A stretch of DNA of 64,000 nucleotides from a virus: positions 64,001 through 128,000 of the IMG/VR virus record IMGVR_UViG_3300003873_000002; one strand, written 5' to 3'. Within the stretch, counting starts at the first letter, position 1, and every line of letters starts with the position of its first letter. Below are positions 12,584-60,606 of this stretch, piece by piece. A program made the position numbers and the translations under genes. Under the pieces are notes generated by a model. It was not told the DNA's origin. It worked only from the letters and a program-made list of their open reading frames with translations, and ran no database searches.

Positions 12584-12590
12584 GTTATTT

Positions 12591-12640
12591 ATACTATGTT
12601 ATACTATGTTATACTATGTTATACTATGTTATACTATGTT
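12591..12640. repeat. Tandem repeat (ATACTATGTT)x5
   Basis: Five perfect 10-nt units between promoter and start codon. Confidence 0.95.
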
Positions 12641-12642
12641 AT

Positions 12643-12671
12643 ATTATAATATAATAATTATAAGAAAGCAA
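12643..12671 (-). promoter_or_regulatory. sigma70-type promoter
   Basis: TTGCTT-N17-TATAAT on the minus strand. Confidence 0.6.
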
Positions 12672-32968: not shown

Positions 32969-33706
32969 TAACTTGTTGATTCTTTATTTTAAGAATCAGC
33001 TGTAACTTGTTGATTTTACATATATACCTTCCCATTTAGAATGTATTTGTTTTTCTTTTAAAATCAACAAGTTACCTCGTTTTTCCCACATGTTTTCTTC
33101 GAAAATCTGAAAACAAATTTTGTTTAAAATCAACAAGTTAACATGAAAATTTTCAAGTGCGCAAAAAACGCATCGATTTTGCCATGTTTTTAGAGCACCA
33201 TAAAAAAAGCGCATTTTTTAACTTGTTGATTTTAAATGAAAAACATCAAATTTGTACACTATGTAAAATTAGAAACACTTTTCTATATAAAATATATATT
33301 ACTAAGTAACATATATGTTTCAGATGTAATGGCAAACCGGCCCGGATTTGGGACTGCCTGCCTGGATGGGTGGGTGTGGTGTAATGAGTGAAGTGTATTT
33401 GAGATAGTTGAATACAATTTCCAAAAACTTTTTTTACGTGTACAGATTTGACCTTTTCTGTTTAAATTCAACAAGTTATTGGATTCTCTAGATATCACAA
33501 TTTTTAACCTTTTGTTGTACAGATTTAGTGTTTTTTGTTTAAATTCAACGAGTTAATGATTTCATGGTTCCAAAAACTTTTTTCTACGTGTACAGATTTG
33601 ACCTTTTCTGTTTAAATTCAACGAGTTATTGCATCTTTTGTTGTGGTTTATTTTTTTTCCCATGAGTTTGGATTTTGGATATTTTCTATTTAAAGTCAAT
33701 AAGTTA
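32969..33706. promoter_or_regulatory. Array of nine IHF-consensus-like sites (WATCAANNNNTTR)
   Basis: AATCAACAAGTTA at 32969(-), 33003(-), 33062(+), 33128(+), 33219(-); one-mismatch variants at 33466, 33543, 33616, 33694 (+). Confidence 0.7.
33421..33630 (+). repeat. ~60-bp iteron-like direct repeats
   Basis: CCAAAAACTTTTTT(C)TACGTGTACAGATTTGACCTTTTCTGTTTAAATTCAAC(A/G)AGTTATT at 33421 and 33570, partial copy at ~33516-33555. Confidence 0.9.
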
Positions 33707-34066
33707 TTGGTTTTTAGTGCATTTTATGTGACATTCATGAGCATTGAATTAATCTGACTAAATTGAACTGAACCAATATTACATAACACATACAGATATG
33801 TTTAGATAGTTTAAATATAGTTTAAACTTCATATAACGCGCTGTATGAGACGATCTCTTTAAAAATGACATATGATATGACAATAAAAAAATAATCACAT
33901 ACTGAGCTTTATTTTAAAAATGATTTATTTTATAATTTATAAAATTTTGTTTTAATTTGTTTAAATTAAGATATAGACTTCAAAAGTATTAAATAACATT
34001 GATTAACATTGATTAATACATCAGATCAATTATGTAAAATAAAATAAAGGAAAATAAGGAATTTAA

Positions 34067-34555
34067 ATGGAAAATATTAAATTGTCCAAGAACTTCACAT
34101 TAAGCGAGTTTCTTAAATCTTCTACTGCCTCAAGATTGGGGATTAATAATACACCAACACAGGAAATTGTCGATAATTTAAAAGATTTATGCGAAAATGT
34201 GCTTCAGCCAGCTAGGGACCATTTTGGTGCAATTAAAATTAATTCTGGTTATAGATCAGCAGAACTTTGTGAGGCCATTGGATCCACATCTCATTCAAAT
34301 CATACATTAGGGTTCGCTGCAGATGTTGAAACAAATGTCCCTAATATTGAATTATTAAATTGGTTTTATGATAATGTTGAATATAAAGAACTTATTGGTG
34401 AGTATTTTGGTGAGAATCCTAGTGATGGCTGGGTCCATATCGCATATCAAAAAGGTAACAATAAAGGCGAGCTAAAAATCAAAACTAAGGATATTAATTA
34501 CAAAAGAGTCGATATCAATGAATTAAATGAAATATGTGGGTACACTGGGGTATAA
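34067..34555 (+). CDS. Peptidase M15 family endolysin
   Basis: LSKNFTLSEF..S, INSGYRS, SNHTLG.AAD, WVHI zinc-binding motifs. Confidence 0.9.
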   Translation: MENIKLSKNFTLSEFLKSSTASRLGINNTPTQEIVDNLKDLCENVLQPARDHFGAIKINSGYRSAELCEAIGSTSHSNHTLGFAADVETNVPNIELLNWFYDNVEYKELIGEYFGENPSDGWVHIAYQKGNNKGELKIKTKDINYKRVDINELNEICGYTGV

Positions 34556-35129
34556 AATGAAAATGCTTGAACAGATCATCAATAATATCAAAAACGATAT
34601 GATAATAGAAACTGCAGAAGTCAATGATACACTTAAAAACATGAAATCTCAAAAAGATATTTTTATTCTTATAATTGGTGGTTCTGGATCAGGTAAAAAC
34701 TATTTCTATGAAAAAAATCTTAAAAACATCCCATTGGTCGATAATGATGCGATTACAAAAAAATTATCTGGTGGTGATTTTGAGAAAGCAAGAAAGCTCG
34801 TTTCTAAAGCAACATCTATTGCAAATAAAATGCTAACAGACGCATTTAATGAGAAAAAAAGTGTATGCCAGGTTTCAACTGGCACAAACGAAAAAGCAGT
34901 TTTTAATAAATTTAAAAAGGCTAAAGATGCGGGGATGAAGACTGGGTTGATACTCATTGACGCAGATATTAACGATGCACAAAAAAGAAATGTAAATAGG
35001 GCTAGTGGTGGCAAACAGGGCCTTGTGCCTGATTGGAAAGTAGAAAAAACAAACATCGCGGCCAAAAAAACATATAAAAATATCAAAAACAACAACGTGG
35101 TTGATTTCGCATTTATTGCAAAAAATTAA
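34527..35129 (+). CDS. P-loop kinase (zeta-toxin/AAA_33-like)
   Basis: Walker A GGSGSGKN, VDND, RN..R lid; real start likely 34557 or 34563. Confidence 0.7.
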   Translation: MKYVGTLGYKMKMLEQIINNIKNDMIIETAEVNDTLKNMKSQKDIFILIIGGSGSGKNYFYEKNLKNIPLVDNDAITKKLSGGDFEKARKLVSKATSIANKMLTDAFNEKKSVCQVSTGTNEKAVFNKFKKAKDAGMKTGLILIDADINDAQKRNVNRASGGKQGLVPDWKVEKTNIAAKKTYKNIKNNNVVDFAFIAKN

Positions 35130-35256
35130 AAGCTTCTAATACATTATACAAACAGTATACAAACAGTATACAAACGGTATACAAACAGTATACAAACACT
35201 TCAGTGACCATAGCTTGACCATAGCTTGACCATATAAGTTTAAAGACATCAATGAT

Positions 35257-35311
35257 AATCAATAAGTTGTGCTCATTTAGAGATTAGTGTAAATGACATA
35301 ACTTATTGATT
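35257..35311. promoter_or_regulatory. Inverted repeat made of two opposed IHF-consensus sites upstream of flagellin
   Basis: AATCAATAAGTTG(tgc)TCATTTA-N10-TAAATGA(ca)TAACTTATTGATT. Confidence 0.6.
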
Positions 35312-35379
35312 TTGATAATAAAAACACTTATTTAACTATTTAAACACAGATAATTAAAAAAAATATTTGAAAATAATTG

Positions 35380-35406
35380 TAACGTTTTTTGTTAAAAGGC
35401 CGATAT
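35380..35406 (+). promoter_or_regulatory. sigma28 (FliA) promoter
   Basis: TAACGTTT-N11-GCCGATAT versus consensus TAAAGTTT-N11-GCCGATAA; exact spacing, 62 nt before the flagellin ATG. Confidence 0.85.
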
Positions 35407-35468
35407 ATAATATAAGAGAGAAACAATTAAAACAATTAAAAATATTTTTAAATTAAGGGAGAATTATC

Positions 35469-36293
35469 ATGTCAATGGTTATCAACACAAATATGGGTTC
35501 AGAAAACGCAGTTCGTTTATTGGATCAATCAAGTCGTGAACAAAAAACAGCCATGGAGCGTTTAACCTCAGGTTTGCGAATCAATCATACTGCTGATGAT
35601 GCGGGAGGTGCCGCCGTTGTTGTTAGAATGGATTCACAAGTTAAAGGCATCGATATGTCGGTTCGAAACTCAAAAGATGGTATTAACTTGATTCAAACAA
35701 TGGATGGTGCCGCACAAGAAGTTGTGAATATGCTACAACGCATTCGTGAATTGGGTGTGCAAGCAGCTAACGAAACTTACACCTCAGCTCAAAGAAATCA
35801 AATGAACCAAGAAGTGAGTCAATTAAAAACAGAAATTGACCGGGTGGCTAAAACCACTAAATTTAATGGTATTGCCTTAATGAATGGGTCAAATAAAGTT
35901 TTAAGTTTCCAAGCTGGTTGGGAGACTGCTGCAGAAAATACCATTAGTGTTAGTACTTTTAACTTTAGTAAAGGAAATATGTCTGTTGGAGTAGCAAAAA
36001 TTACCACTCAAGCATTAGCGCTTTCTGCCATTGGAAAAGTCGATATTGATTTATCAAAAATCAATAAAATCCGAGCTAAATGGGGTGCTGTACAAAACCG
36101 CTTTGAACACACTATTACAAATCTTAATAATGTAAACGAAAATATCAAAGCCTCAAGAAGCCAGATTCAAGATACTAATTTTGCAAAAGAGAGTGCTGCG
36201 CTAGCCAAAACACAGGTGTTGCAACAGGCAGGAATGAGTATGTTAACACAATCAAATCAAAATAGCAAACAAGTGTTGAGTTTATTGAGATAA
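35469..36293 (+). CDS. fliC: Flagellin (minimal D0/D1 type)
   Basis: MVINTN, MERLTSGLRIN..ADDAGG, MLQRIRELGVQAAN, TKFNG, GAVQNRFEH, SRSQIQDTNFAKE, QVLQQAGMSML.Q.NQ....VLSLLR. Confidence 0.97.
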   Translation: MSMVINTNMGSENAVRLLDQSSREQKTAMERLTSGLRINHTADDAGGAAVVVRMDSQVKGIDMSVRNSKDGINLIQTMDGAAQEVVNMLQRIRELGVQAANETYTSAQRNQMNQEVSQLKTEIDRVAKTTKFNGIALMNGSNKVLSFQAGWETAAENTISVSTFNFSKGNMSVGVAKITTQALALSAIGKVDIDLSKINKIRAKWGAVQNRFEHTITNLNNVNENIKASRSQIQDTNFAKESAALAKTQVLQQAGMSMLTQSNQNSKQVLSLLR

Positions 36294-36340
36294 TAAGGTA
36301 TAATACATAAAGAGAAATAAAAAATAAAACGAGCACTATT

Positions 36341-36757
36341 ATGAAAATCGATCCTATTAATGTTGTACAGACGCGTATTATTATGGCACAAGAAAACTCA
36401 AATAAAGAAAATACAAAAATACTTGATTTGAATGCAAAAAAAGAACGAGGTGATTCTGTCGATATAAGTCTTGAGGCATATAAAAGACTATCAAAAAATA
36501 AACCTATTGAAAATAGGAAAACTGATGGTACTAGCACTAATGGGATTACAAAAGACCACAACCAACCAAACATTCTAGACCATAAACAAACACAAATGAT
36601 GTTTGTAAAAAAGGAAGGTGTTAAGGATATGGTTGTAGTATTTAAAGATAAAAAGACTGGCGATGTAGTAGCAGAAATACCGAGCAAAAATGCAATTGAG
36701 AATAATAAAAGACTTAAAAATTTTTTAGATAACATTACACTCGATTTATTAGCTTAA
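36341..36757 (+). CDS. flaG: FlaG-like flagellar protein
   Basis: C-terminal MVVVFKDKKTGDVVAEIPS matches the FlaG VV.V.D..TGEVIRQIP motif; directly downstream of flagellin as in bacterial fliC-flaG loci. Confidence 0.75.
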   Translation: MKIDPINVVQTRIIMAQENSNKENTKILDLNAKKERGDSVDISLEAYKRLSKNKPIENRKTDGTSTNGITKDHNQPNILDHKQTQMMFVKKEGVKDMVVVFKDKKTGDVVAEIPSKNAIENNKRLKNFLDNITLDLLA

Positions 36758-36810
36758 ATACATTGAAATACAATGAGACACATCAATAAAATCAATCTAT
36801 GGGGACAACA

Positions 36811-36921
36811 ATGACAGTAACAGAGATTAAGGAAAAGATTAGAATAGCTGAATCATCAGGTGATATTAATGAAGCTAATAAACTGAGAGAAGAATTGGCA
36901 AAAATGGTAGTTAATTCGTGA
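36811..36921 (+). CDS. Small hypothetical protein (36 aa, below track cutoff)
   Basis: GGGGA RBS, MTVTEIKEKIRIAESSGDINEANKLREELAKMVVNS; stop overlaps next GTG. Confidence 0.45.
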   Translation: MTVTEIKEKIRIAESSGDINEANKLREELAKMVVNS

Positions 36922-37133
36922 TTGAAGAAATTAACTTAGACCGCATTAATTCTAATAAAAAAATTATCACAATTCTCACTTCGGTTGGCATTAAAACCAA
37001 TGGGGCAAAAAAGTGGTTAGTGGATAATACTGATGATATTATAGGAGTGTTGCAACAAAATAATGAACCATATATATTCACAATAAAAGAATATGAATTA
37101 TTGCGCACTGAATTAATTAAAAAACAAAAATAA
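36918..37133 (+). CDS. Hypothetical protein
   Basis: 71 aa ORF in operon. Confidence 0.5.
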   Translation: MIEEINLDRINSNKKIITILTSVGIKTNGAKKWLVDNTDDIIGVLQQNNEPYIFTIKEYELLRTELIKKQK

Positions 37134-37161
37134 CCAATACAATTATGCGTCTGAAGAACCA

Positions 37162-37779
37162 ATGAAATATCGATATAAAACTTCATCTTTATCTGTGAAT
37201 AGATTGCAGAGACTTAGTATGCACTCAATGTTTCAAAACGAAACAAAAATTAGAGCCAGAGGGGTTGGTGGGTTTAAGTATATAGGGTACAGATTTGTTT
37301 ATCACACCACCTCATCCCAGCGATTTAAAAAAAGATGGAAGAATTTAGAAGGTACACCACTTGAGGTGCATATTAAATTGTATTTTTATGTAACTGGGGC
37401 CAAATATAAAGGCAAAAAGCGCGAAAGGTATTTGATTTGTGCTCAATTTCCATATAGTCGTGATTTCAAAACACTTAAAAATTTATATGATTTACCCGTA
37501 AAATTATTTTCATCAGACCCATCATTTAAGTATTATTTTTCATATGCACTGAATAAACATAATGCTGTCATAACAGATGAAAATGTTATATTAAGACATC
37601 TCGGAAAATCTTTAACAAATATACCAAAAAAACGGAACCCAAACCTTAATACAGAACTCACAAAACATTTTTATAAATTTTTTATATTTGCAAAAACAAA
37701 AAGACCAAATGATATATTAAAAAAACAATATAACCTTGGTAAAAAATTTAATATGCCAATTAAAAATAAAAATGTGTAA
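37162..37779 (+). CDS. Basic hypothetical protein
   Basis: 205 aa, Lys/Arg-rich. Confidence 0.55.
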   Translation: MKYRYKTSSLSVNRLQRLSMHSMFQNETKIRARGVGGFKYIGYRFVYHTTSSQRFKKRWKNLEGTPLEVHIKLYFYVTGAKYKGKKRERYLICAQFPYSRDFKTLKNLYDLPVKLFSSDPSFKYYFSYALNKHNAVITDENVILRHLGKSLTNIPKKRNPNLNTELTKHFYKFFIFAKTKRPNDILKKQYNLGKKFNMPIKNKNV

Positions 37780-37840
37780 TTTATTTGATAATTAAATAAT
37801 TTTAATACAACAAACATAACAAACACAATAAGGCTAAACG

Positions 37841-38035
37841 ATGTTAAGACAAATAATAAAAGAAGCACTTAGTGGTGATAGAGAACAATATATAAAATAT
37901 TTTAACGGTTTACTTGATAAATATAACGTATCATCACCGAGCGAACTTTCAGTTAAAGACAAAGCAAAATTTTTTAATGATGTTGATGCTGGTTGGGTGT
38001 CAAAAAAGGAATTAGCAAAAAAGAAAAATAAATAA
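37841..38035 (+). CDS. Small conserved T4-like phage protein (possible internal head protein)
   Basis: Y..YFN.LL.KY.V.SPSELS..DK.KFFN.VD..W; N-terminal IIKEA; preceded by ATTAAATAA. Confidence 0.55.
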   Translation: MLRQIIKEALSGDREQYIKYFNGLLDKYNVSSPSELSVKDKAKFFNDVDAGWVSKKELAKKKNK

Positions 38036-38165
38036 ATATCAAGAAAGGAAATAAAAGCATGAAGGATTTTTTTAAAAAAATTTTAAAAATTATTAGCCCT
38101 ACTAAAAAAACAAACGATAATTTTTCATCATACCGCAGAACTACTAGACGCCATATAAATAAATA

Positions 38166-38230
38166 ATAAACTGTTATAAACTGTTATAAACTGTTATAAA
38201 CTGTTATAAACTGTTATAAACTGCTGTAAA
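38166..38230. repeat. Tandem repeat (CTGTTATAAA)x5 plus a variant
   Basis: Direct reading. Confidence 0.95.
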
Positions 38231-38232
38231 AA

Positions 38233-38745
38233 ATGAATATAAAACACTCCCATACAGATTTGATGATTTTGAACCGCAAAGATATAAAAACAGTGCGTTC
38301 ATATTTGTTATCAATACAAAATTCAATATGCCCATTATGTGGGTATCATATAGATGAAGCTGATGCAGTTCTTGACCACCAACACCGGACAAAATTGGAA
38401 ACAATCGGTGTTAATGGCGCTGGTCTTGTAAGAGGTGTTCTTCATAGGAATTGTAATTCAGCTGAAGGTCAATTGCTTAGCAAATTTAAGCGAAGTGGTG
38501 TTAAAGATATTAAATTCGCTGATTTCCTTAGAAAACTTGCTAATTATTACGAAGAAACTAATTATAATTTAATACACCCTAACGAAACAGAAGCCCCCGC
38601 TAAAATGGGTAAAAGACTATTTAATAGAATATCAAAAGCATATAGTGTTAAATACCCTAAAAGAAAACCACTCGAATATCCCAAATCAGGGTTATTAACT
38701 AAAAAATTCCAAGATTTAATCGAAGAATTGGAAATTAGCAAATAA
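38233..38745 (+). CDS. Recombination endonuclease VII (T4 gp49-like)
   Basis: QNSICPLC, VLDHQH, VRGVLHRNCNSAEG, LRKLANY, IHP. Confidence 0.9.
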   Translation: MNIKHSHTDLMILNRKDIKTVRSYLLSIQNSICPLCGYHIDEADAVLDHQHRTKLETIGVNGAGLVRGVLHRNCNSAEGQLLSKFKRSGVKDIKFADFLRKLANYYEETNYNLIHPNETEAPAKMGKRLFNRISKAYSVKYPKRKPLEYPKSGLLTKKFQDLIEELEISK

Positions 38746-38773
38746 AAAAATAAAAAAAAATAAAAAATAACTG

Positions 38774-38802
38774 TTGACTTGTATCAAGAAATATAGTATA
38801 AT
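38774..38802 (+). promoter_or_regulatory. sigma70-type promoter with A-tract UP element
   Basis: TTGACT-N17-TATAAT. Confidence 0.75.
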
Positions 38803-38830
38803 AATCTTATTAAAAATTTAGGAGATTACT

Positions 38831-39601
38831 ATGATTAATACACACAATACTGATAATATGTCTATTGATGGAAACATTGACGATGATTTTGTTCTTGATA
38901 TTGAAGAAAAAGAAAACCTTTTAGTAGACGAAATTCATGACGACAACGAAACTGCTGAAAGTGAGATAAAAACATCAGGGGAATTTTTAAGGGGTGTTTC
39001 TAAAAAGGTTAATTATATTAATGATTTAGAATTAACTACTAAGTTATTAAAAGAATCAAAAGAATATAAAGACTATGCATTGTTTAAAGAAAATAACCCC
39101 GGTGGTGAATATAAATATGTTAAAAGAGAAGCACCATCCGACGAGTTATGCCTGAATTTTCTTAAAATTTATGAAGGAATAACACGCAAACCAAATTTTA
39201 GTGGCTATTCCGATGATTATAAAGAAGAATTCTTTTCGAAAGCACAATATTTATTTATCAGACATTGGTTTAAATTTGATCCATTAAAAGTAAGAAAAAA
39301 TTATGTTGTAAATCCGAATTCTAAATTAAAATCAGTTAATGATATAGAGGTTAAAAAATCAAAAAACGGTGTTAAACTAAAAGAAAAAATTGATGCGGGT
39401 GAATTAACATTAAAACCAGAAGAGGCGTTTGAAGGGGGTTTTAGCTGGTTTACAATGCTTTGTGCTACTGCATGTGTTGATAGTATCACAATGTTTAAAA
39501 ACCGTAGAGAAAAACAACGCGCATTAATTAAATCAGTAGTGGATAAAAATACACTAAGTGACGAGCAGATAAAATTCAATTATGACTGGATTGATTTATG
39601 A
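38831..39601 (+). CDS. Late-transcription sigma factor (T4 gp55-like)
   Basis: NYIND.EL, FLKIYEGITRKPNFSGYS, FDP, FSWFT.LC match gp55 blocks; ~45 aa insertion. Confidence 0.8.
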   Translation: MINTHNTDNMSIDGNIDDDFVLDIEEKENLLVDEIHDDNETAESEIKTSGEFLRGVSKKVNYINDLELTTKLLKESKEYKDYALFKENNPGGEYKYVKREAPSDELCLNFLKIYEGITRKPNFSGYSDDYKEEFFSKAQYLFIRHWFKFDPLKVRKNYVVNPNSKLKSVNDIEVKKSKNGVKLKEKIDAGELTLKPEEAFEGGFSWFTMLCATACVDSITMFKNRREKQRALIKSVVDKNTLSDEQIKFNYDWIDL

Positions 39602-39663
39602 AATAAAACATATTAATTCTATAAAAACCCAGTGGAAACCCAGTAGAAATTCAGGGAAAATTC

Positions 39664-40173
39664 ATGGAAAATTCGAGGAAAAATATGGTTGATATTGAAT
39701 TTACTGGCAGAATTGTTTTTAATAACGCATTTCATAAGTTTATATGGGAAGAGTTTGTTTGTAAAGAGATCGATAATAAAAACGGTGTGTGGAGTGATGC
39801 TAGAAAACCACATCGTTTATGGAAAAATCTTCGTGTAGAATTAGATGAAAAATTAGAAATGGGTTTCACCGAATTAAAGGGGTGGGCAAAAAAGCCAGGT
39901 TATAGACTCCACAATACTGATTTTTATGCCAAATATAAAAATGTGTTATTAGATATTAAATCCGCATATAATATTTTAATGGGCGAATACAATGGGGATG
40001 ATATATTCAAATATGCCCAGTTTCTCATTAACAGCGATAAGCACACTAAATTAACACCCTTAGAGATTGCGCATTTACATATGATATTTACTAAGCGACG
40101 TTGCAAATTCGCAGATTTAAAAAAAGATTTAAATGAAATAAAAAAAATTCAACAGCGTTGGAATATAATTTAA
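39664..40173 (+). CDS. Hypothetical protein
   Basis: 169 aa ORF. Confidence 0.55.
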   Translation: MENSRKNMVDIEFTGRIVFNNAFHKFIWEEFVCKEIDNKNGVWSDARKPHRLWKNLRVELDEKLEMGFTELKGWAKKPGYRLHNTDFYAKYKNVLLDIKSAYNILMGEYNGDDIFKYAQFLINSDKHTKLTPLEIAHLHMIFTKRRCKFADLKKDLNEIKKIQQRWNII

Positions 40174-40181
40174 AATAAATC

Positions 40182-40210
40182 GTGACTTTTTCAAGAGTAT
40201 ATGTTATAAT
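40182..40210 (+). promoter_or_regulatory. sigma70-type promoter (extended -10)
   Basis: GTGACT-N17-TATAAT with TG extension. Confidence 0.6.
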
Positions 40211-40242
40211 ATAATCTATACAAAAATAAATAGGGGATTTCT

Positions 40243-41022
40243 ATGAAACTTGTTGAATTATATAGTAGTTGTGTTGTTATTTCTATTGCGACATCATTAT
40301 CAACTGTTATGTTGTATAATCACCACACCAATGAAAACCACGCTAATCAAAGTATTAAAAATAATGTTAATCACACTCAAATCCCATTTGTTTCTGATTT
40401 AAAACACCTTCAACCAAATAAAAAAAGTAGTCCAATTGCACAACCACCACAACCACCACAACCACCACAACCACCACAACCACCACAACCACCACAACCA
40501 CCACAACCACAACCAGATAAACAAGTGAAAGTGTCACCAGATAATGAATTGGAATATTTGACGGTTAAAACTAATTATATAAGCAGTGATTATAAATATG
40601 AATTAAATCTTCTAGCAGAAGCCATGTTTTTTGAAGCACGCGGTGAGGGTAAAATGGGTGTAACAATGGTTTATGATGTGATTATGAACCGTGTGCACAA
40701 CAAACATTTTAGTGATACTATAGAAGGTGTTATACGAAGACATAAGGCATTTAGTTATCGCCATGCATTTACATATATTGAAAGACAAAATATTATGAAA
40801 AAACATCAACACACATATAATAAAATCAAAAATATTGCAAACAAATTGCTTCATAGCAAAACTTATAGGGATTATACTCTAAATTCAGTTTACTATTTTA
40901 ATTTCAATAAAGTGCACCCATCATGGTATTCACATGAATATGTGACTGTAGTATACAAAAACCATGTATTTTTGAACGATTGTCGAAGAGCAACACAACC
41001 GCACACAATCGCACTTAAATAA
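40243..41022 (+). CDS. Cell wall hydrolase (SleB/Hydrolase_2) with N-terminal anchor and PQP linker
   Basis: LAEAMFFEARGEG..G...V..VIMNRV..F..TI.GVI....AFS, YYFN...V.PSW, NHVF; (CAACCACCA)x8 linker. Confidence 0.85.
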   Translation: MKLVELYSSCVVISIATSLSTVMLYNHHTNENHANQSIKNNVNHTQIPFVSDLKHLQPNKKSSPIAQPPQPPQPPQPPQPPQPPQPPQPQPDKQVKVSPDNELEYLTVKTNYISSDYKYELNLLAEAMFFEARGEGKMGVTMVYDVIMNRVHNKHFSDTIEGVIRRHKAFSYRHAFTYIERQNIMKKHQHTYNKIKNIANKLLHSKTYRDYTLNSVYYFNFNKVHPSWYSHEYVTVVYKNHVFLNDCRRATQPHTIALK

Positions 41023-41084
41023 TAATTAATTAAATAAATCTAAATAAATCTAAATAAATTTATAAAATATCTCAGGAGATTAAA

Positions 41085-42752
41085 ATGGGTGGCAACGCTA
41101 CAGGAACAAATAAAAAGACTGGAGTAGAAGTAGAAGCGGAAAAAATTCCTTTGAAACAAATTGGTCGATCAGAATTTACTAATAAATTCACATCAGTTTT
41201 TAAAGAATTAAATTCAATCTTTAAAAAAGAAAATAAAAAACCAATTTGGGTCGATGAAAATAAAATCACTACAGGTGAATTGTTTAACGGATCGACTTCA
41301 TTTATTTTCGATGCCTCGATTCCTGACGATGAAATTGTTAAATATAAAGAGTTTGCTGGTGATATTGATATCATCGTCCCTGATAATTTAAAAACTGAAT
41401 TATGGAATATGCTTGATAAATTAGAAGGCAATGAAGTTATCCCCGGCGTTACTTATATTGGATCAAATAAACCAACAGTTAAATCAATTGGTGACCAAAT
41501 TAATGCTGTCTTTGTTGCAACATTTAATGAATCAAAAATCGCGGTTCAGGTTGATTTTGAGTTTCTTGAAGTTGATGAAAATGGTTCACCATCTGAGTGG
41601 GCAAAATTTAGTCATAGTTCATCATTCGAAGATGCAAAAAAGGATATTAAAGCAGTACACCACAAATATTTGTTACAATCATTGATTGGTGGTGCATCTA
41701 TTAGAGATGATATTGTAATTGCAACTCCATCATCTACACCAGAGAAAATTAGATTCAAGAAAATGAATGATTTACCACGTATGTTGAAATTTAGTGTTGG
41801 TCGTGGTATTCGAACTGCATATGAATTAATGTACGACATGGATGGTAATGTTATTCAACATAACGGAAAAGACGTATATAGGGAAATTCCGTCAAAATCA
41901 AGTAATTATGAAACAATCGTCGCTAACATCTATAAACTGGCATTTGGGCGTTTAGATGATAACAAAGATGATGTTAAATTATTCGGATCGTTTGTTGGTT
42001 TGATTGAATTAATGAAGAAGTATTTAAATAAAAAACAGGTTCTTAATACATTGGATAGATATGTAGATAAATTATTCCGTGTAAAACCACCACGGGGTCA
42101 GGAATTGGAATCACATGATAAAGAATTAGATTACCGCGTTAAGATTGTTGGGTATGAATATTTCCTTAAACATTTAAACATTACTGATTCGAAATTAAAA
42201 GACAAATACAAAAACCAAATTGATCTTTATTATAAGGAATGGAGAGGCAGACGCGATGAGAATTTGGTTAGGGGTATTATAGATAGTATCATTGAAAATC
42301 GAGTTAAAAATAGTAATGAAGATGCTGTTGATGGTAGTGATATCACACCTGATGATATGAGCACAATTGCTAGTGTAGGTGCCCAACCAGTCATCAGTAA
42401 TATTCTCGTTAGTGTCAAAAATAAGAATATTGATATTGGCGATGATATTGGCGATGATATCGGTGATGATATCGGTGATGATATCGGTGATGATGATGAT
42501 ATTGATATAGGTATTAGTGATGATGATGCCAAAAGCATGGGTATTGATATTGATAATGGTGATGATGATGATGATATTTTACTTGAAAATGTATTAGATA
42601 AAACATTTAGTCTTGCGTGGTATATTACTACTATCGAGCCAGGTCTTGATTTCGTAAAACTTATTAATGAGTTACCTGAGGAAAATTCTGATTTGGAAGA
42701 TTTGAATGATATTGTCGATGCTGTTATTGAGGCGTATAATATAGGACAATAA
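41085..42752 (+). CDS. Pol-beta-like nucleotidyltransferase-domain protein with acidic tail
   Basis: MGGNA start, FNGS...GDIDI and VQVDF carboxylates; DDIG 12-nt repeats in acidic C-terminus. Confidence 0.55.
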   Translation: MGGNATGTNKKTGVEVEAEKIPLKQIGRSEFTNKFTSVFKELNSIFKKENKKPIWVDENKITTGELFNGSTSFIFDASIPDDEIVKYKEFAGDIDIIVPDNLKTELWNMLDKLEGNEVIPGVTYIGSNKPTVKSIGDQINAVFVATFNESKIAVQVDFEFLEVDENGSPSEWAKFSHSSSFEDAKKDIKAVHHKYLLQSLIGGASIRDDIVIATPSSTPEKIRFKKMNDLPRMLKFSVGRGIRTAYELMYDMDGNVIQHNGKDVYREIPSKSSNYETIVANIYKLAFGRLDDNKDDVKLFGSFVGLIELMKKYLNKKQVLNTLDRYVDKLFRVKPPRGQELESHDKELDYRVKIVGYEYFLKHLNITDSKLKDKYKNQIDLYYKEWRGRRDENLVRGIIDSIIENRVKNSNEDAVDGSDITPDDMSTIASVGAQPVISNILVSVKNKNIDIGDDIGDDIGDDIGDDIGDDDDIDIGISDDDAKSMGIDIDNGDDDDDILLENVLDKTFSLAWYITTIEPGLDFVKLINELPEENSDLEDLNDIVDAVIEAYNIGQ

Positions 42753-42754
42753 AA

Positions 42755-44065
42755 ATGTTTATTTCTAAAATATTAAAGAACATGAGAAGGTGCGAACAAG
42801 ATGATTCAAATACATCGCACACTGTTAAAGGTGTTATACATGAAATGATCATTCATGCAAAACTTGAACGCATTAAAAATAAACTTGATGAAGATTCGAG
42901 TAACATTTCAATATCACAAAATATCTATAACTTTCTTAAAAGTATAAAAACTGATGATATTAATATCAAAGCGATGATTAAAGATATGATGGTATCTTAT
43001 TTTATTCATAATGATAAATATGCAACATACCTTAAAAATTATTTTGTTAATGAATTAAATCTGGATAAAAAACTGATAGAAAGTCTTGAAAATAAATTGA
43101 GAAGACGCGGTGTTACTAGCGATTTCTATAAAATAATGAAAAAATTATTTATTTTTGATGATAATGGTTTTTTGTCCTCTACAAATGACAAACGCCCAGA
43201 TTATAATGAAATTAACGCAAATGGATTTATTTCAGATTATTCAAAACCACTTTGTAATAAAATACAAAATACAACAGGAATAAATTCTGATATAATCGAA
43301 TCTGTGTTTAGTGTTGTTGCGAACCATAGTGGTGTTGTCGGTGGTCTTGGTGTTGGTAAATATGAAATAGCACTTATTATTTTCTTTAAAGGTGGTAAAA
43401 GTGCCGTTAAAGGCGATGTAATGTTAAACGATAAAAACGTTGAAGTCAAGGTGGGTAATGCGCGGTTAGGCAGTAATCTTAAAAATCATGCTGATGAAAC
43501 ACAAAGATTTTTAAAACTTACCTTTGATGCTGATACTGTGACTAGAAATGATGCGCCAATGCCAGTAAGTGTATTAGAATTTATGTGTGATGTTGTTGGA
43601 GCCACTAAACAGGATGCAAGTAGCACTGTGGTTAAAAATTCATTAAACTTTGTTGAAAAAAATATGATGACTCTTATTAATTATGTGACATCAACAAAGA
43701 AATATAATATAAACCTTAAAAAGTTTGTTAATTTTTATACAGCGAACTTTGTTAGTGAGATTTATGGTGGGGATTATAAAAAATACAACAGTGCTTTTTA
43801 TAATGCATTTAAATCCAAAGATATACAAAAGGATGTCATACCATTACTTGCTGCAACATCATTAATTTTATATAAAGAGTCCGAAGGGTTTAATATTTTT
43901 ATTTTTATAAGTGGTACTGGTAAATCTGCATTGAGCATAAATAAATTTACTGAAAAAGGCGTAGATGCCGCTATGAGAACATTTATCAAAAATGGTGGGA
44001 AAATTAACGGTACAACTGCATCATCGAACCCAACAGGTGTTCGAATGAAATTGGGTGCCAAATAA
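42755..44065 (+). CDS. Hypothetical protein with PD-(D/E)xK nuclease-like motif
   Basis: GVGKYEIAL...KGDVMLNDKNVEVK. Confidence 0.5.
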   Translation: MFISKILKNMRRCEQDDSNTSHTVKGVIHEMIIHAKLERIKNKLDEDSSNISISQNIYNFLKSIKTDDINIKAMIKDMMVSYFIHNDKYATYLKNYFVNELNLDKKLIESLENKLRRRGVTSDFYKIMKKLFIFDDNGFLSSTNDKRPDYNEINANGFISDYSKPLCNKIQNTTGINSDIIESVFSVVANHSGVVGGLGVGKYEIALIIFFKGGKSAVKGDVMLNDKNVEVKVGNARLGSNLKNHADETQRFLKLTFDADTVTRNDAPMPVSVLEFMCDVVGATKQDASSTVVKNSLNFVEKNMMTLINYVTSTKKYNINLKKFVNFYTANFVSEIYGGDYKKYNSAFYNAFKSKDIQKDVIPLLAATSLILYKESEGFNIFIFISGTGKSALSINKFTEKGVDAAMRTFIKNGGKINGTTASSNPTGVRMKLGAK

Positions 44066-44100
44066 TTGGACTTAATTGAGACTAAATTAAGTCTAATTAT
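44062..44100 (+). other. Intergenic hairpin
   Basis: ATAATTGGACTTAATT-N7-AATTAAGTCTAATTAT (one G-U pair). Confidence 0.55.
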
Positions 44101-44137
44101 GTGGGCTTAAATTAAATTAAACAAAAGAAGAATTTTT

Positions 44138-45733
44138 ATGTTAAAGAAAATTGTAGAAAATGCAAAAAACCACAGATCTGAAAATATTTTAGAAGCAAAA
44201 ATGTTGGATATCAGTATTAAAACCGTTAATAAATTTGCTACAAATCCAAATAAATGCTCTGTATTTCTTAGTGAGCCGGTTGATGTTTATCAAAAAACCG
44301 ATGGTGTGAAGATTACATTAATCCGCACAGACACATCGTACGATAATACAATTGACGGTTTTTATAGGAACTGGGTTGTTGCATATAAAAACAATATTCT
44401 TTTTCATGACGAGTACAACTATGCCACACATAAAGATATTCACCATACTGTGGGTGCATCACAATTTAGTGTAGTATTAAAACATTTTTTGTCATTGCAT
44501 ATCAGAGGTGCCCTTAAATCAATAAAGAAAAACACTGAGTATCTTATTGAATTTTTAATGAAAAAGCCGACACTTTCAAGTAACTATAAAACCAAGCATG
44601 GCATGGTATTAATAGGATATGCAAGAAGCTCTTATAAGATTAAAAATGGTAAAGTAACATCTACACCAAAATTATTTAAAACCATCGGTAGGGAGTCAAT
44701 TGCGAGCGTATTTGATATTGATGTGCCCATGCATGTGTTCTCTGGTGTCCTTGGTGATTTTGATAATTTCCAGAAAAATATTATCGATACTAGGTTAGCA
44801 CCAATCTTCTTAAAGTATAAAGCTAGTTTAGAATCTGCACCAGATAGTTGTAGTGTTATAGATATCATGAGAAATGTTTTTATTGAGCTAGAATCTGTTT
44901 ATGGGGGCAATGAAGAAGGTGTTGTTATTACTGCAAAAAACAAATCATTTAATCTAAAATTTCAACAGGATTACCAAGTCGATCAAAAAGCCAGACAAAT
45001 TATTAAAATGAAGCACCGAATGGACGCTAAAAACAACGAAATATATTGGGAAAATGTTAGAAATTTCGCAGATGGGATTATTAAAGAGCTTGATATTAAA
45101 ATGGGTGATACTACACCATTAAGAACTTTGCTTAGTAGAGTAAGCAATTTATTAACTCAAACCAGAATTGATATAGATTTTAAAAATAGTAAAAAAACAA
45201 TGAGTACCATTGTTGATGATATCCAACTAACAATCAAATCAAAAATAATCAGAATGTTAGCCGGTAATAATGGTGCATTAATTATTGGTAAATTTAGAGT
45301 GCTTACAAATGCGCACACAAAAATGATTAATGATGCACTTAAAAAATATGATACTGTTAATGTAGCTATTATCTCAAATAAAAATACCAAGAAAAATTTG
45401 CCTGTTATTGTCAAAATGATTGGACTTACATTCGGTAGCAAAATTAATGTAGCGTTTGCAAGTACTGGCAATATTATTACATTGCTAGGCAAATTTGATG
45501 ATAATATTAATACTGTTATAGCAGGCACCGATCGTGTGGAAGCTTATAAAAAACAACTACTGAGATCACCTGATATGAATATAGAGGAAATTGTGAGAAA
45601 AGATATAGATATCTCAGCGACTAAGGTAATCAAATCATTATCAGATGGTGATGAGTTCTTTTTAGCAAACACGCCGGAGCCAATACATGGCATGTACAAC
45701 GAATTAAAACACATATATGTTGATAACCAATAA
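44138..45733 (+). CDS. Fusion of a ligase-like nucleotidyltransferase domain and a cytidylyltransferase (HIGH-fold) domain
   Basis: QKTDG (motif I), YLIEF (III), EEGVVI (IV), LK (V); then GKFRVLTNAH, VIAGTDR, ISATKV. Confidence 0.65.
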   Translation: MLKKIVENAKNHRSENILEAKMLDISIKTVNKFATNPNKCSVFLSEPVDVYQKTDGVKITLIRTDTSYDNTIDGFYRNWVVAYKNNILFHDEYNYATHKDIHHTVGASQFSVVLKHFLSLHIRGALKSIKKNTEYLIEFLMKKPTLSSNYKTKHGMVLIGYARSSYKIKNGKVTSTPKLFKTIGRESIASVFDIDVPMHVFSGVLGDFDNFQKNIIDTRLAPIFLKYKASLESAPDSCSVIDIMRNVFIELESVYGGNEEGVVITAKNKSFNLKFQQDYQVDQKARQIIKMKHRMDAKNNEIYWENVRNFADGIIKELDIKMGDTTPLRTLLSRVSNLLTQTRIDIDFKNSKKTMSTIVDDIQLTIKSKIIRMLAGNNGALIIGKFRVLTNAHTKMINDALKKYDTVNVAIISNKNTKKNLPVIVKMIGLTFGSKINVAFASTGNIITLLGKFDDNINTVIAGTDRVEAYKKQLLRSPDMNIEEIVRKDIDISATKVIKSLSDGDEFFLANTPEPIHGMYNELKHIYVDNQ

Positions 45734-54945: not shown

Positions 54946-55206
54946 GTGTCATTCTTTGCCATTCTTTGCCATATATGACATTATGCCAGTCAAACAATAT
55001 AATCTAATTAATCCCCATCAAACTATAATTGTTTGTACATTATAAACACATTATAAACACATTATAAACACATTATAAACACATTATAAAACTCAGTACA
55101 ATGCGCTATATGCGATGATATTATTTCATAGATGGTTTTATGTCAATTTAATAAAAACATACCGTTAATCTCATTAAAATAAAAAAATAAAAAATAAAAT
55201 AAACTG

Positions 55207-55875: not shown

Positions 55876-56781
55876 ATGGAAGATGAAATCAGTATCGACA
55901 TTGGGTATGGTCACTGTAAGGTATTATATGCGGGTAAATTAGTAAAATTTCCAACAGCGATTAGTTATGCAAATGATTTAGGTATTTCGTGTGGGGAAAT
56001 GAATTCTTATGAGTTCGAAGGTAAACAATATAGCGTTGGTTCGGACGCTTCTGATGAATCATTTAGTACAACTGATTACAAATTGCTATATAAGTTCGCG
56101 CCATTAATTGTTTTTCATATTTTAAGTAAATTTGATAGAGTTAATGCTGACACACCTATCAATATTAATACAGGATTATCAATTGTTGATTGGGTCCATA
56201 AAGATGGATTTATTGATAGACTATCATGTATTGAAGTAAACGGTAAAAAAATTGATTTGGATGTTACGTTAATCCCACAAGGGGCTGGAGTTGCAGTAGA
56301 TTGGGTAGAGAATCAAAATAATTCTATTTACCCGAACAAACTTTCTGTTATTGATATCGGATTTAACACCATTAATCTAATTTATATGGAAAAAGGTAGA
56401 TTAATCAGACAAAAATCAAAACCATATCCTGGGCATGGTATTGTTTCAATTATTAATACATTCTCGACATACCTAGAAAACAAATATTCAATGAATTTTA
56501 GTCAGCAAGAAGCTAATGATATTTTCCTCGATGGTGAATTCTTCTACAATGGTGAAGACCAAGAAGATGTTAAATCGCACATCAAAACAATCAAGGAGCA
56601 ATTTGTTTCAAAACTTTTCAATACTATTTTGGTTGACGCTAAAAAAACATTTGCAACATCAAATGTAGTGCTTATTGGAGGTGGTGGCGCTTATATGCTC
56701 GATGACATCCCAATGCCACCAAATGTTGAATTTGTCGCTAAAGATTATGAATACTCGAATGTCCGTGGATATGCGATTTAA
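55876..56781 (+). CDS. parM: ParM/StbA-family actin-like ATPase
   Basis: Phosphate 1 IDIGYGHCK, TGL, connect 1 PQGAG, phosphate 2 VIDIGFNTIN, adenosine LIGGGGA, connect 2 YSNVRGY. Confidence 0.85.
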   Translation: MEDEISIDIGYGHCKVLYAGKLVKFPTAISYANDLGISCGEMNSYEFEGKQYSVGSDASDESFSTTDYKLLYKFAPLIVFHILSKFDRVNADTPININTGLSIVDWVHKDGFIDRLSCIEVNGKKIDLDVTLIPQGAGVAVDWVENQNNSIYPNKLSVIDIGFNTINLIYMEKGRLIRQKSKPYPGHGIVSIINTFSTYLENKYSMNFSQQEANDIFLDGEFFYNGEDQEDVKSHIKTIKEQFVSKLFNTILVDAKKTFATSNVVLIGGGGAYMLDDIPMPPNVEFVAKDYEYSNVRGYAI

Positions 56782-60003: not shown

Positions 60004-60606
60004 ATGATTTTTAAAAGCACAAAAACATTTAATAATTTACCATGTTCACACCAGCAATGGATGGATTCTGATGAGGATGGGGTAATTGGTGCAGGTCAAT
60101 GTGCCCAAACACATGGATATAGTAGATCGTTTATTTTCGAATTTTCTTGTAGTGAAGTAGATAGTTATGGGTGGGTCGTGGGTTTTAGTTCACTTAAAAA
60201 GGTTAAGAAGTGGCTAGAATATATGTTTGACCATACTTCATTATGGGAATCATCTGACCCTCGCATCGACGATGTACTCAAAATAAATGATGAATTAGAT
60301 ATTCCATTATATAATTTAAGGGTTCTACCCACTGGTGTGTCTATGGAACAAACAGCATTATTTGTTTCTATGTATATTAATCCTTATATTTATGATACTA
60401 CTGATGGTCGTTGCTGGATTTCTAGACTAGAAGTTAGAGAGAACGATAAGAATTCAGGTATTATTGAATTGACTGAAGAAGATGCGATTAAAATGTCACA
60501 GCGGTTGAATGAATATGAGCCTCATAATTATTTCCCAACTAGGACTGTTTATAGATATACCATGCCAAAAAAATTAATTAACGAAATTGACACGTTTAGT
60601 GTTTAA
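60004..60606 (+). CDS. queD: 6-carboxytetrahydropterin synthase (QueD/PTPS-like)
   Basis: SHQQW, CAQTHGYSR, GWVVGF, FDHT, DP, SME, VRENDKNS. Confidence 0.85.
   Translation: MIFKSTKTFNNLPCSHQQWMDSDEDGVIGAGQCAQTHGYSRSFIFEFSCSEVDSYGWVVGFSSLKKVKKWLEYMFDHTSLWESSDPRIDDVLKINDELDIPLYNLRVLPTGVSMEQTALFVSMYINPYIYDTTDGRCWISRLEVRENDKNSGIIELTEEDAIKMSQRLNEYEPHNYFPTRTVYRYTMPKKLINEIDTFSV

Follow-up and report, generated by a model that had tools for sequence, protein, structure and literature searches.

Why should a T4-like bacteriophage carry a flagellin gene next to a FlaG-like gene, behind what resembles a promoter for the flagellar sigma factor of its host? The question is raised by bases 64001-128000 of the 154,123-bp linear IMG/VR virus record IMGVR_UViG_3300003873_000002, a stretch of 64,000 nucleotides (nt) referred to here as the window. 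An earlier reading made from the letters alone (the sequence-only reading) had pointed out an intact flagellin of 274 amino acids (aa) followed by a FlaG-like gene, and both genes indeed score above their Pfam cut-offs. Judged from the comparisons described below, the pair is a conserved phage accessory ('moron') element that is real and selected, and not a stray host fragment. It is proposed, with a probability of roughly 0.6, that this selected moron cassette provides a phage flagellin which is driven by host FliA and enters the host filament, and a FlaG which modulates export. The components of the cassette are the following, in window coordinates.

35380-35387 and 35399-35406, + strand: sigma-28 (FliA) type promoter, -35 box TAACGTTT and -10 box GCCGATAT separated by an 11-nt spacer (consensus match).
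35469-36293, + strand: flagellin, 274 aa, domains D0/D1 only, host-like (Thiomicrospiraceae-type) allele (Pfam, tree).
36276-36304, + strand: sigma-70-type flaG promoter, TTGAGT-N17-TATAAT, overlapping the flagellin stop codon (promoter prediction; position conserved).
36341-36757, + strand: FlaG-like protein, 138 aa, of a phage-specific FlaG clade (Pfam, PDB, phage homologues).

The same gene pair is found in other phages, which were recovered by a protein search with the late sigma factor gp55 and by an IMG/VR scan with an alignment of phage-type flagellins. Two of them, both from other samples, are L096 (a 37-kb scaffold with a gp55 64% identical to that of the window) and L098 (10.8 kb, gp55 67%). 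In each, the same genomic surroundings contain a gene for a 273-aa flagellin with a FlaG-like gene behind it, and the sister flagellins pass the Pfam thresholds. In L099 flagellin and FlaG lie beside a tail-sheath gene, and in three IMG/VR contigs that represent one phage (L100-102) the pair is situated between thymidylate synthase/DHFR and tail-fibre genes. The search for fliC-flaG in related phages that had been suggested as a check has thus added four further lineages (L096, L098, L099 and L100-102), and the pair occupies at least three genomic positions in at least five phage lineages. Flagellin matches are rare among phages, numbering only 12 in 50,697 phage records, most of them in small fragments. 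No close relatives of the window were recovered from phage collections by megablast, nor by IMG/VR scans that took the window flagellin, a Thiomicrospiraceae-type flagellin alignment or gp55 as query, and a scan of phage collections with the M15 peptidase gave only matches of at most 41% identity.

Among themselves the FlaGs of all these phages are more similar than any of them is to a bacterial FlaG, for which identities reach about 30% over 50-80 aa. The flagellins of L096, L098, L099 and L101 are 59-72% identical to one another and 33-36% identical to the window flagellin, and in the tree the sister-phage flagellins form a fully supported clade on a long stem. Among 1.84 billion representative proteins only one other cluster lies close to this clade, P0125, which is L099 itself, and cellular flagellins reach no more than about 40% identity to it. 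The L096 and L098 flagellins share 72% identity and give a ratio of nonsynonymous to synonymous substitution rates (dN/dS) of 0.11, and flagellin is at least as conserved as the gp55 (63%), endonuclease VII (61%) and M15 peptidase (66%) of the same pair.

The flagellin of the window is of a different kind. It matches Flagellin_N with 127 bits and Flagellin_C with 78 bits (Pfam cut-offs 26.6 and 23), and its closest relative is P0001, a hydrothermal-vent metagenome protein with 86% identity, followed by a flagellin from a bacterial fla-fla-fliD contig with 39% G+C (L005, 79%) and one from a Piscirickettsiaceae metagenome-assembled genome (77%). A maximum-likelihood tree places it on a short branch inside a clade of Sulfurivirga, Galenea, Hydrogenovibrio, Thiomicrospira and Thiomicrorhabdus. 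Measured against its two nearest relatives dN/dS is 0.07, at nearly saturated synonymous sites. Of 114 columns with a conservation of 90% or more, terminal helices included, the protein deviates from the consensus in 6; the same count in 119 bacterial relatives has a median of 2 and ranges up to 11, with 8% having six or more, so that the phage value is high but within range. The G+C content at third codon positions (GC3) is 0.284 for flagellin and 0.21 for flaG, compared with a mean of 0.232 +/- 0.035 for the open reading frames (ORFs) of the phage and 0.30-0.33 for the nearest bacterial relatives. By these measures the window flagellin is intact and under constraint, and the dN/dS check that had been called for, with 0.07 for the window and 0.11 for L096-L098, points to purifying selection.

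Holding all five phage flagellins together in the tree costs 19 log-likelihood units (approximately unbiased test, p 0.029), for a group that was defined only once the tree was known. The most parsimonious course is that an ancestral cassette comprised a phage-type flagellin and FlaG, and that the lineage of the window later swapped its flagellin coding sequence for a host-like allele. FlaG and the promoter appear to be old features of the phage lineage and only the flagellin coding sequence of the window a host-like replacement, and the pair is thus not a simple recent capture of a host fliC-flaG unit. The host-like allele hints at selection for a subunit that fits the chaperone, cap and filament lattice of the current host, and the old divergent flagellin clade hints that a distinct filament, too, can be of advantage.

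A neutral passenger, that is a recently transduced host fliC-flaG fragment which has not yet been lost and is useless to the phage, would account for the host-like sequence and short branch of the window flagellin and for a GC3 (0.284) near that of its nearest bacterial relatives (0.30-0.33). It would not account for the recurrence of the pair in at least five phage lineages and at least three positions, the phage-specific FlaG clade, the conserved promoters, the flagellin dN/dS of 0.07-0.11 or the phage-type repeats inside the untranslated region (UTR). Such a passenger is very improbable and is largely refuted by the sister phages; both it and an assembly chimera, considered next, are essentially excluded.

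The cassette is embedded among phage genes, an endolysin/kinase pair on the left and endonuclease VII and gp55 on the right, as had been described before and as Pfam and PHROGs bear out.

34067-34555, + strand: M15 peptidase (endolysin-type), left flank (Pfam, PHROGs).
34527-35129, + strand: kinase-like AAA_33 protein, left flank (Pfam, PHROGs).
38233-38745, + strand: endonuclease VII, right flank (Pfam, PHROGs).
38831-39601, + strand: gp55-like late sigma factor, right flank (Pfam, PHROGs).

The M15 peptidase and kinase-like genes also precede the cassette in the sister phage L096 and in the independent contig L095, and the right flank with endonuclease VII and gp55 is syntenic in L094, L096 and L098. 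L094 and L095 stem from JGI metagenome 3300003177. L095 contains the peptidase, the kinase, the promoter and the first 37 nt of flagellin, and L094 the last 288 nt of flagellin, FlaG and 7 kb of phage genes, so that the two contigs span both junctions and the cassette is truly phage-borne. Aligned with window positions 33650-44169 they show 0 substitutions in 9.3 kb. A joining of phage and host contigs during assembly could be read from the fact that both contigs stop short within flagellin (35506 being the last position of L095 and 36006 the first of L094); it is contradicted by the reproduction of both junctions in that other assembly, by the same gene order in diverged phages from other samples and by a composition and repeat content (GC3, tandem arrays) that are phage-like. 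The chimera was rejected on the recurrence of the junctions and the shared synteny, and its probability is practically negligible. Exact-pattern scans of metagenome contigs gave no match. Relative to the window, 14 segments of 2-103 bp are deleted in L094 and L095, never the other way round, and microhomologies of 4-5 nt often border them; some of the deletions shift the reading frame of phage genes (those for endonuclease VII and for the 555-aa and 436-aa products). The pattern has the look of an artefact of amplification or assembly, or of a subpopulation riddled with deletions. A 40-bp frameshifting deletion in the L094 flagellin was considered as a sign of decay and dropped, since 14 one-directional deletions with 0 substitutions look artefact-like, and no inference on selection was drawn from it.

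The FlaG of the window scores 25.9 bits against Pfam FlaG (PF03646; gathering cut-off 23.8), and of the sister proteins that of L096 scores 30.3 bits and that of L098 20.0 bits, which is below the cut-off. Its only sequence match in the Protein Data Bank (PDB) is Helicobacter pylori FlaG (6JSX, E 0.007). With phmmer it matches the FlaG ORFs of about 40 bacterial loci. Its identity to bacterial FlaGs is only 23-36% over 45-82 aa; the match to the L096 FlaG extends over the full length (41% identity, E 4e-31). BLASTP did not match the window FlaG to the first of the FlaGs encoded at the closest bacterial locus, because FlaG evolves fast (dN/dS about 0.35 between L096 and L098) and the phage proteins form a separate clade. 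In the structure model residues 1-81 are disordered and are followed by a beta-beta-beta-alpha core with a predicted local distance difference test (pLDDT) score of 70-83, and Foldseek ranks the solved FlaGs 6JSX and 2HC5 first and second at an E value of about 0.9, which is not significant. The Pfam core, the disordered N-terminus and the position beside a flagellin gene are also common to the FlaGs of polar flagellates (Campylobacter jejuni, Vibrio cholerae and Pseudomonas aeruginosa; 6JSX and 2HC5), from which the phage protein is set apart by the low identity given above. On this evidence the window FlaG is diverged but genuine.

The phage FlaG clade has motifs of its own, SLEAYxRL in the N-terminal part and LDxIxKDL in a short C-terminal tail. 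The linker and GL(I/L)T-E-A tail of 15 bacterial homologues remain unaligned in the phage FlaG, which is without the linker of about 15-20 aa that precedes the conserved C-terminal GL(I/L)T tail of bacterial FlaGs. The short tail LDxIxKDL resembles the presumably linker-less tail of Bacillus YvyC. In C. jejuni FlaG antagonises the docking of FliS-flagellin at FlhA (Waller et al. 2024, PMC11536152), and its C-terminal strand binds the FlhA torus and limits filament length (PMC11536152). The idea of the sequence-only reading that the phage makes a length regulator therefore needs modification in the sense that FlaG is an antagonist at the export gate (PMC11536152). The window FlaG ends in ITLDLLA, where an FlhA-binding strand is only a candidate.

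The expression signals of flaG separate it in part from flagellin. Its promoter is TTGACA-N17-TATAAT in L096 (12/12) and TTTACA-N17-TATAAT in L101 (11/12), and the presence of an own sigma-70-type promoter in three phages implies that flaG is not purely sigma-28 timed. FlaG is probably an early phage product as well as being made by read-through, and the claim that it is produced only when the host builds flagella cannot be upheld. In L099 only 9 nt separate flagellin and flaG, which are therefore co-transcribed there. At 3400-3440 of L096 a hairpin with a T-run after flagellin overlaps the perfect TTGACA-N17-TATAAT flaG promoter, combining a terminator and a promoter in one element.

The promoter upstream of flagellin lies 62 nt before the ATG. 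When both strands of the whole 154,123-bp genome are scored against the sigma-28 consensus, TAACGTTT-N11-GCCGATAT comes out alone at the top with 14/16, the chance expectation of matches that good being 0.85 in 308 kb. The same layout, TAAAG...-N10/11-GCCG(A/T)TA at 62-97 nt before the ATG, is found in 24 of 29 related bacterial flagellin loci. The corresponding sequences of the sister phages are as follows.

L096: TAAAGTTT-N11-GCCGATAA, match 16/16.
L098: TAAAGTTT-N11-ACCGTTAA, match 14/16.
L099: TAAAGCTT-N11-GTCGTTAA, match 13/16.
L101: GCCGATAT only, without a -35 box.

All five phage cassettes thus retain the -10 box (GCCGATA/GYCGTTA), with 34-62 nt between it and the ATG, and four of them also the -35 box. 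An alignment of the sigma-28 region is possible for the window, L096 and L098 and takes in part of the spacer and an A-rich stretch before the -35 box. The region therefore appears to have been inherited within the phage lineage; it does not seem that the promoter arrived with the new flagellin coding sequence. The retention of G+C-rich boxes in genomes of 30% G+C, in front of coding sequences that share about 35% identity, is the strongest argument for what would be selected sigma-28-type transcription. The view that retention of the promoter means function has accordingly gained from the -10 box in all five cassettes and from the four other lineages with flagellin and FlaG. The record contains no sigma-70-family region 4 and hence no FliA of the phage's own, so host FliA would be needed.

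Further signals surround the sigma-28-type boxes.

35141-35234: two tandem repeat arrays of 11-nt units, 5.3 and 2.7 copies, in the 340-nt intergenic region (Tandem Repeats Finder, TRF).
35293-35318, + strand: conserved upstream block ATGACATAACTTATTGATTTTGATAA (similar blocks GTAACTAYTTGATTTTAAA in L096 and L098).
35406-35414, + strand: TATAATATA, identical to the extended -10 element of phage early promoters and abutting the sigma-28 -10 box (108 upstream regions).
35421-35441, + strand: 9-nt tandem repeat AAACAATTA, 2.3 copies, in the flagellin 5' UTR (TRF).

Early promoters of this phage have the consensus TTGACA-N17-TATAATATA, and no -35 box (TTGACA) is found 16-18 nt before the TATAATATA of flagellin, so that for a sigma-70 reading of the flagellin promoter one element is present and the other is absent at that distance. 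An ATATA stretch follows the -10 box in L096 and L098 too. Prediction of intrinsic terminators gave none on the + strand around the cassette. The late motif ATTAAATA is absent upstream of flagellin, which argues against a virion role, and is present upstream of the M15 peptidase gene at 34067. Arrays of 9-11-nt units fill intergenic regions throughout the window, and the non-coding DNA of the cassette therefore bears the phage's own signature. The upstream block has the form (G/C)ATAACT(A/T)nTTGATTTT and precedes the sigma-28 promoter by some 60-90 nt in three phages (about 2430-2455 in L096 and 1690-1715 in L098); it may be the site of a regulator.

The carrier is an AT-rich T4-like myovirus of roughly 150-180 kb. 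According to Pfam and PHROGs the window encodes many tail-fibre proteins, a class I ribonucleotide reductase, an ATP-dependent ligase, a gp44-type clamp loader, a Dda-like helicase, endonuclease VII and a gp55-like late sigma factor, a gene set from which a large T4-like myovirus is deduced. The record has a G+C content of 30.4% and an estimated completeness of 85%. In its whole 154 kb there is no second flagellin and no FliS, FlgM, CsrA or Maf, which agrees with the earlier statement that other flagellar genes are missing and leaves the suggested titration of FliW-CsrA without support; the TnpB/TldR domains (PF07282, PF01385 and PF12323) have no match anywhere in it. Phage_integrase has no match in this 85% complete record. 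An actin-like protein is encoded at 55876-56781 of the window (Pfam ALP_N and MreB-like_C; PHROG 'partition protein'), in a T4-like genome in which no integrase was found. It hints at plasmid-like or carrier-state maintenance, which bears on when a sigma-28-driven gene is useful. The host would be a Thiomicrospiraceae/Piscirickettsiaceae sulfur oxidiser, judged from the flagellin alone.

The genome-wide survey of 108 upstream regions gave an early-promoter consensus consisting of an A-rich stretch, GTTGACA, N17 and TATAATATA, with about 19 sites. The late-type motif ATTAAATA, the counterpart of T4 TATAAATA, occurs at about 17 sites, 23-50 nt before many structural and lysis genes. Examples of promoter-motif sites are located at 38774-38802 of the window and upstream of 40243 and of 58992. 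Nearly every intergenic region contains a different 9-11-nt tandem repeat in 2-6 copies (72 TRF rows in the window; for example 12589-12647, 38166-38223 and 55037-55090), and in-frame repeats are also found within genes, such as eight copies of CACAACCAC at 40439-40510 in a Hydrolase_2 gene. A QueD/PTPS-family gene (Pfam PTPS) is situated at 60004-60606 between clamp-loader genes.

What, then, would the cassette do during infection? In enterics it is established that FliA is freed once the hook-basal body exports FlgM, and the same is assumed here. In an infected cell with a finished hook-basal body, where FlgM has been exported and FliA is free, the RNA polymerase-FliA of the host would transcribe the phage flagellin. 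With the help of host FliS and the flagellar type III export gate the product would leave the cell and polymerise into the host filament, and the phage would take over the supply and make-up of the filament as host gene expression declines. Phage FlaG, made from early infection onwards, would act at FlhA to modulate FliS-flagellin delivery and hence filament growth. The selective benefit may be that the infected cell is kept motile and chemotactic in a redox gradient, for which the chances are judged slightly short of even; a filament surface that is changed as protection against flagellotropic or superinfecting phages is a tentative second candidate, and some other benefit is unlikely.

Several points weigh against this proposal. 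The -35 box of the window reads TAACG, with a C at position 4 where an A is found in 24 of 24 bacterial relatives and in L096, L098 and L099, so that the invariant AAG core of the sigma-28 -35 box is lacking in the window. The promoter is the top match of the genome at 14/16, and its earlier description as a near-perfect FliA promoter holds to that extent and not for this base. Together with the missing -35 box of L101, the C may mean that FliA dependence is weakened. The TATAATATA abutting the -10 box, and the lack of a terminator that would shield the cassette from upstream phage transcription, make other expression routes possible. T4-like phages usually shut host transcription down fast, which would limit a FliA-driven gene. 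The record contains neither FliS nor a repressor of host flagellin, and the phage subunit must therefore compete with host flagellin. The presumed host is assigned by means of the flagellin alone. Finally, a carrier or plasmid-like state may apply to the phage, whose record is 85% complete, has no integrase match and encodes an actin-like partition protein.

A special case of the proposed mechanism, differing in its benefit, is that the filament surface is remodelled: phage flagellin would replace or dilute the host subunit so that flagellotropic competitors, or superinfecting phages of the same kind, cannot use the filament. The sister flagellins are at most 40% identical to any cellular flagellin and consist of D0/D1 only, so that the whole exposed surface changes, and the same idea has been proposed for the phage FRphi. 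The closest bacterial flagellin loci (L002:1-9837 and L004:1-9806) adjoin genes for Maf-type glycosyltransferases and nonulosonic-acid synthesis (NeuB, DegT and CMP-transferase). The host filament is probably heavily glycosylated, judging from these loci, and the location of such genes beside host-type flagellins favours remodelling in that surface glycans are probably receptors; the phage record has no such glycosylation genes. Opposed to remodelling are the allele of the window, which is host-like (86% to the vent bacterium) and thus the opposite of a disguise, and the lack of a host-flagellin repressor and of a phage Maf. Roles in superinfection exclusion and against flagellotropic phages were not found in the only tested system (10.1101/2025.07.22.666180). 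Remodelling as the main benefit is therefore considered unlikely.

The promoter arrangement of flaG allows another interpretation, in which the effector is the early sigma-70-driven FlaG. It would block FliS-flagellin docking at FlhA and throttle costly flagellin export and growth, flagellin being mainly a FliS titrant or regulatory partner and not structural. The sigma-70-type promoter before flaG in three phages, the ancestral and vertically inherited nature of FlaG within the cassette, the motifs of the phage clade (SLEAYxRL; LDxIxKDL) and the antagonist role of FlaG in C. jejuni (PMC11536152) are all in line with this manipulation of the export gate. The flagellin, however, is intact, has conserved D0 termini and is under selection as strong as that on phage core genes, which is hard to explain for a mere decoy; moreover FlaG is the fast-evolving partner (dN/dS about 0.35), and in L099 its gene is co-transcribed with flagellin across the 9-nt gap. 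This interpretation is regarded as quite improbable. Equally speculative, and offered with little confidence, is the notion that the phage FlaG clade is a virus-evolved keeper of the export gate. Expressed early from sigma-70-type promoters, it would bias FlhA docking against host FliS-flagellin and let the sigma-28-driven phage flagellin through, with the flagellin slot being exchangeable to match new hosts. If this were true, the gatekeeper FlaG would be the protein-level counterpart of the repressor TldR, and a lytic T4-like phage would re-subunit the host flagellum within one infection cycle.

The proposal that a phage flagellin enters the host filament has a precedent in prophage-encoded FliC_P, which has FliA-type promoters, is paired with the RNA-guided repressor TldR or with CsrA-associated TldRs and has been shown to rebuild the filament (Wiegand et al. 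10.1101/2023.11.30.569447; Walker et al. 10.1101/2025.07.22.666180). The novelty attached to the cassette by the sequence-only reading was therefore overstated, as phage flagellin combined with host sigma-28 had already been described in temperate phages (10.1101/2023.11.30.569447; 10.1101/2025.07.22.666180). The fliC_P-tldR system of Enterobacter FRphi shares with the present cassette a phage flagellin with conserved D0/D1, a FliA/sigma-28-type promoter and the character of a moron among phage genes. FRphi differs in being a temperate siphovirus of Enterobacteriaceae with a TldR repressor of host fliC and large divergent D2/D3 domains, and filament-building has been shown there. The present phage is a T4-like myovirus with no integrase found, no TnpB/TldR domains, a FlaG partner and a host-like flagellin of D0/D1 only; the neighbours of the window flagellin are FlaG and small phage ORFs, with no TldR among them.

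The chromosomal counterparts are the Thiomicrospiraceae/Piscirickettsiaceae loci, in which a divergent maf gene is followed by fla-flaG-fla-flaG-fliD-fliS-fliT and the flagellins are D0/D1-only proteins of 272-278 aa. Their fla-flaG units resemble the phage cassette in the gene pair and its order, in the sigma-28 layout 62-97 nt before the ATG and in flagellins that are 75-86% identical. The phage pair, in contrast, stands alone among phage genes, and its FlaG is from a separate phage clade with a sigma-70-type promoter. A further analogy is psbA of lytic T4-like cyanophages, a host-derived gene for a high-turnover structure that is under purifying selection and exchanges alleles with hosts, and which encodes a photosystem protein expressed from phage promoters. 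The phage flagellin differs from psbA in being a predicted exported structural subunit that relies on an alternative sigma factor and the export machinery of the host.

No description of a phage flagellin and FlaG cassette was found in the literature searched, where 'phage-encoded flagellin' is met only in the TldR work and 'viral flagellin' and 'phage flagellin' are unmatched. The general idea of a phage flagellin under a host FliA promoter is already known from temperate phages; different here are a T4-like carrier in which no integrase was found, an environmental chemolithoautotroph as presumed host, a phage-specific FlaG partner, the lack of outer domains and a flagellin allele that has been exchanged with the host. 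The phage flagellins characterised so far are lysogenic-conversion genes of temperate enterobacterial phages with an RNA-guided repressor, and flagellin with FlaG in environmental T4-like phages represents a different solution. The phage FlaGs provide a natural set of variants for probing the action of FlaG at FlhA, and the promoter comparison offers a testable case of a phage gene gated by the flagellar assembly checkpoint of the host. If the subunit does become part of the filament, virulent phages would maintain or redesign motility as they do the host functions of photosynthesis and nutrient uptake, which would be relevant to chemotaxis-dependent sulfur oxidisers living in steep gradients.

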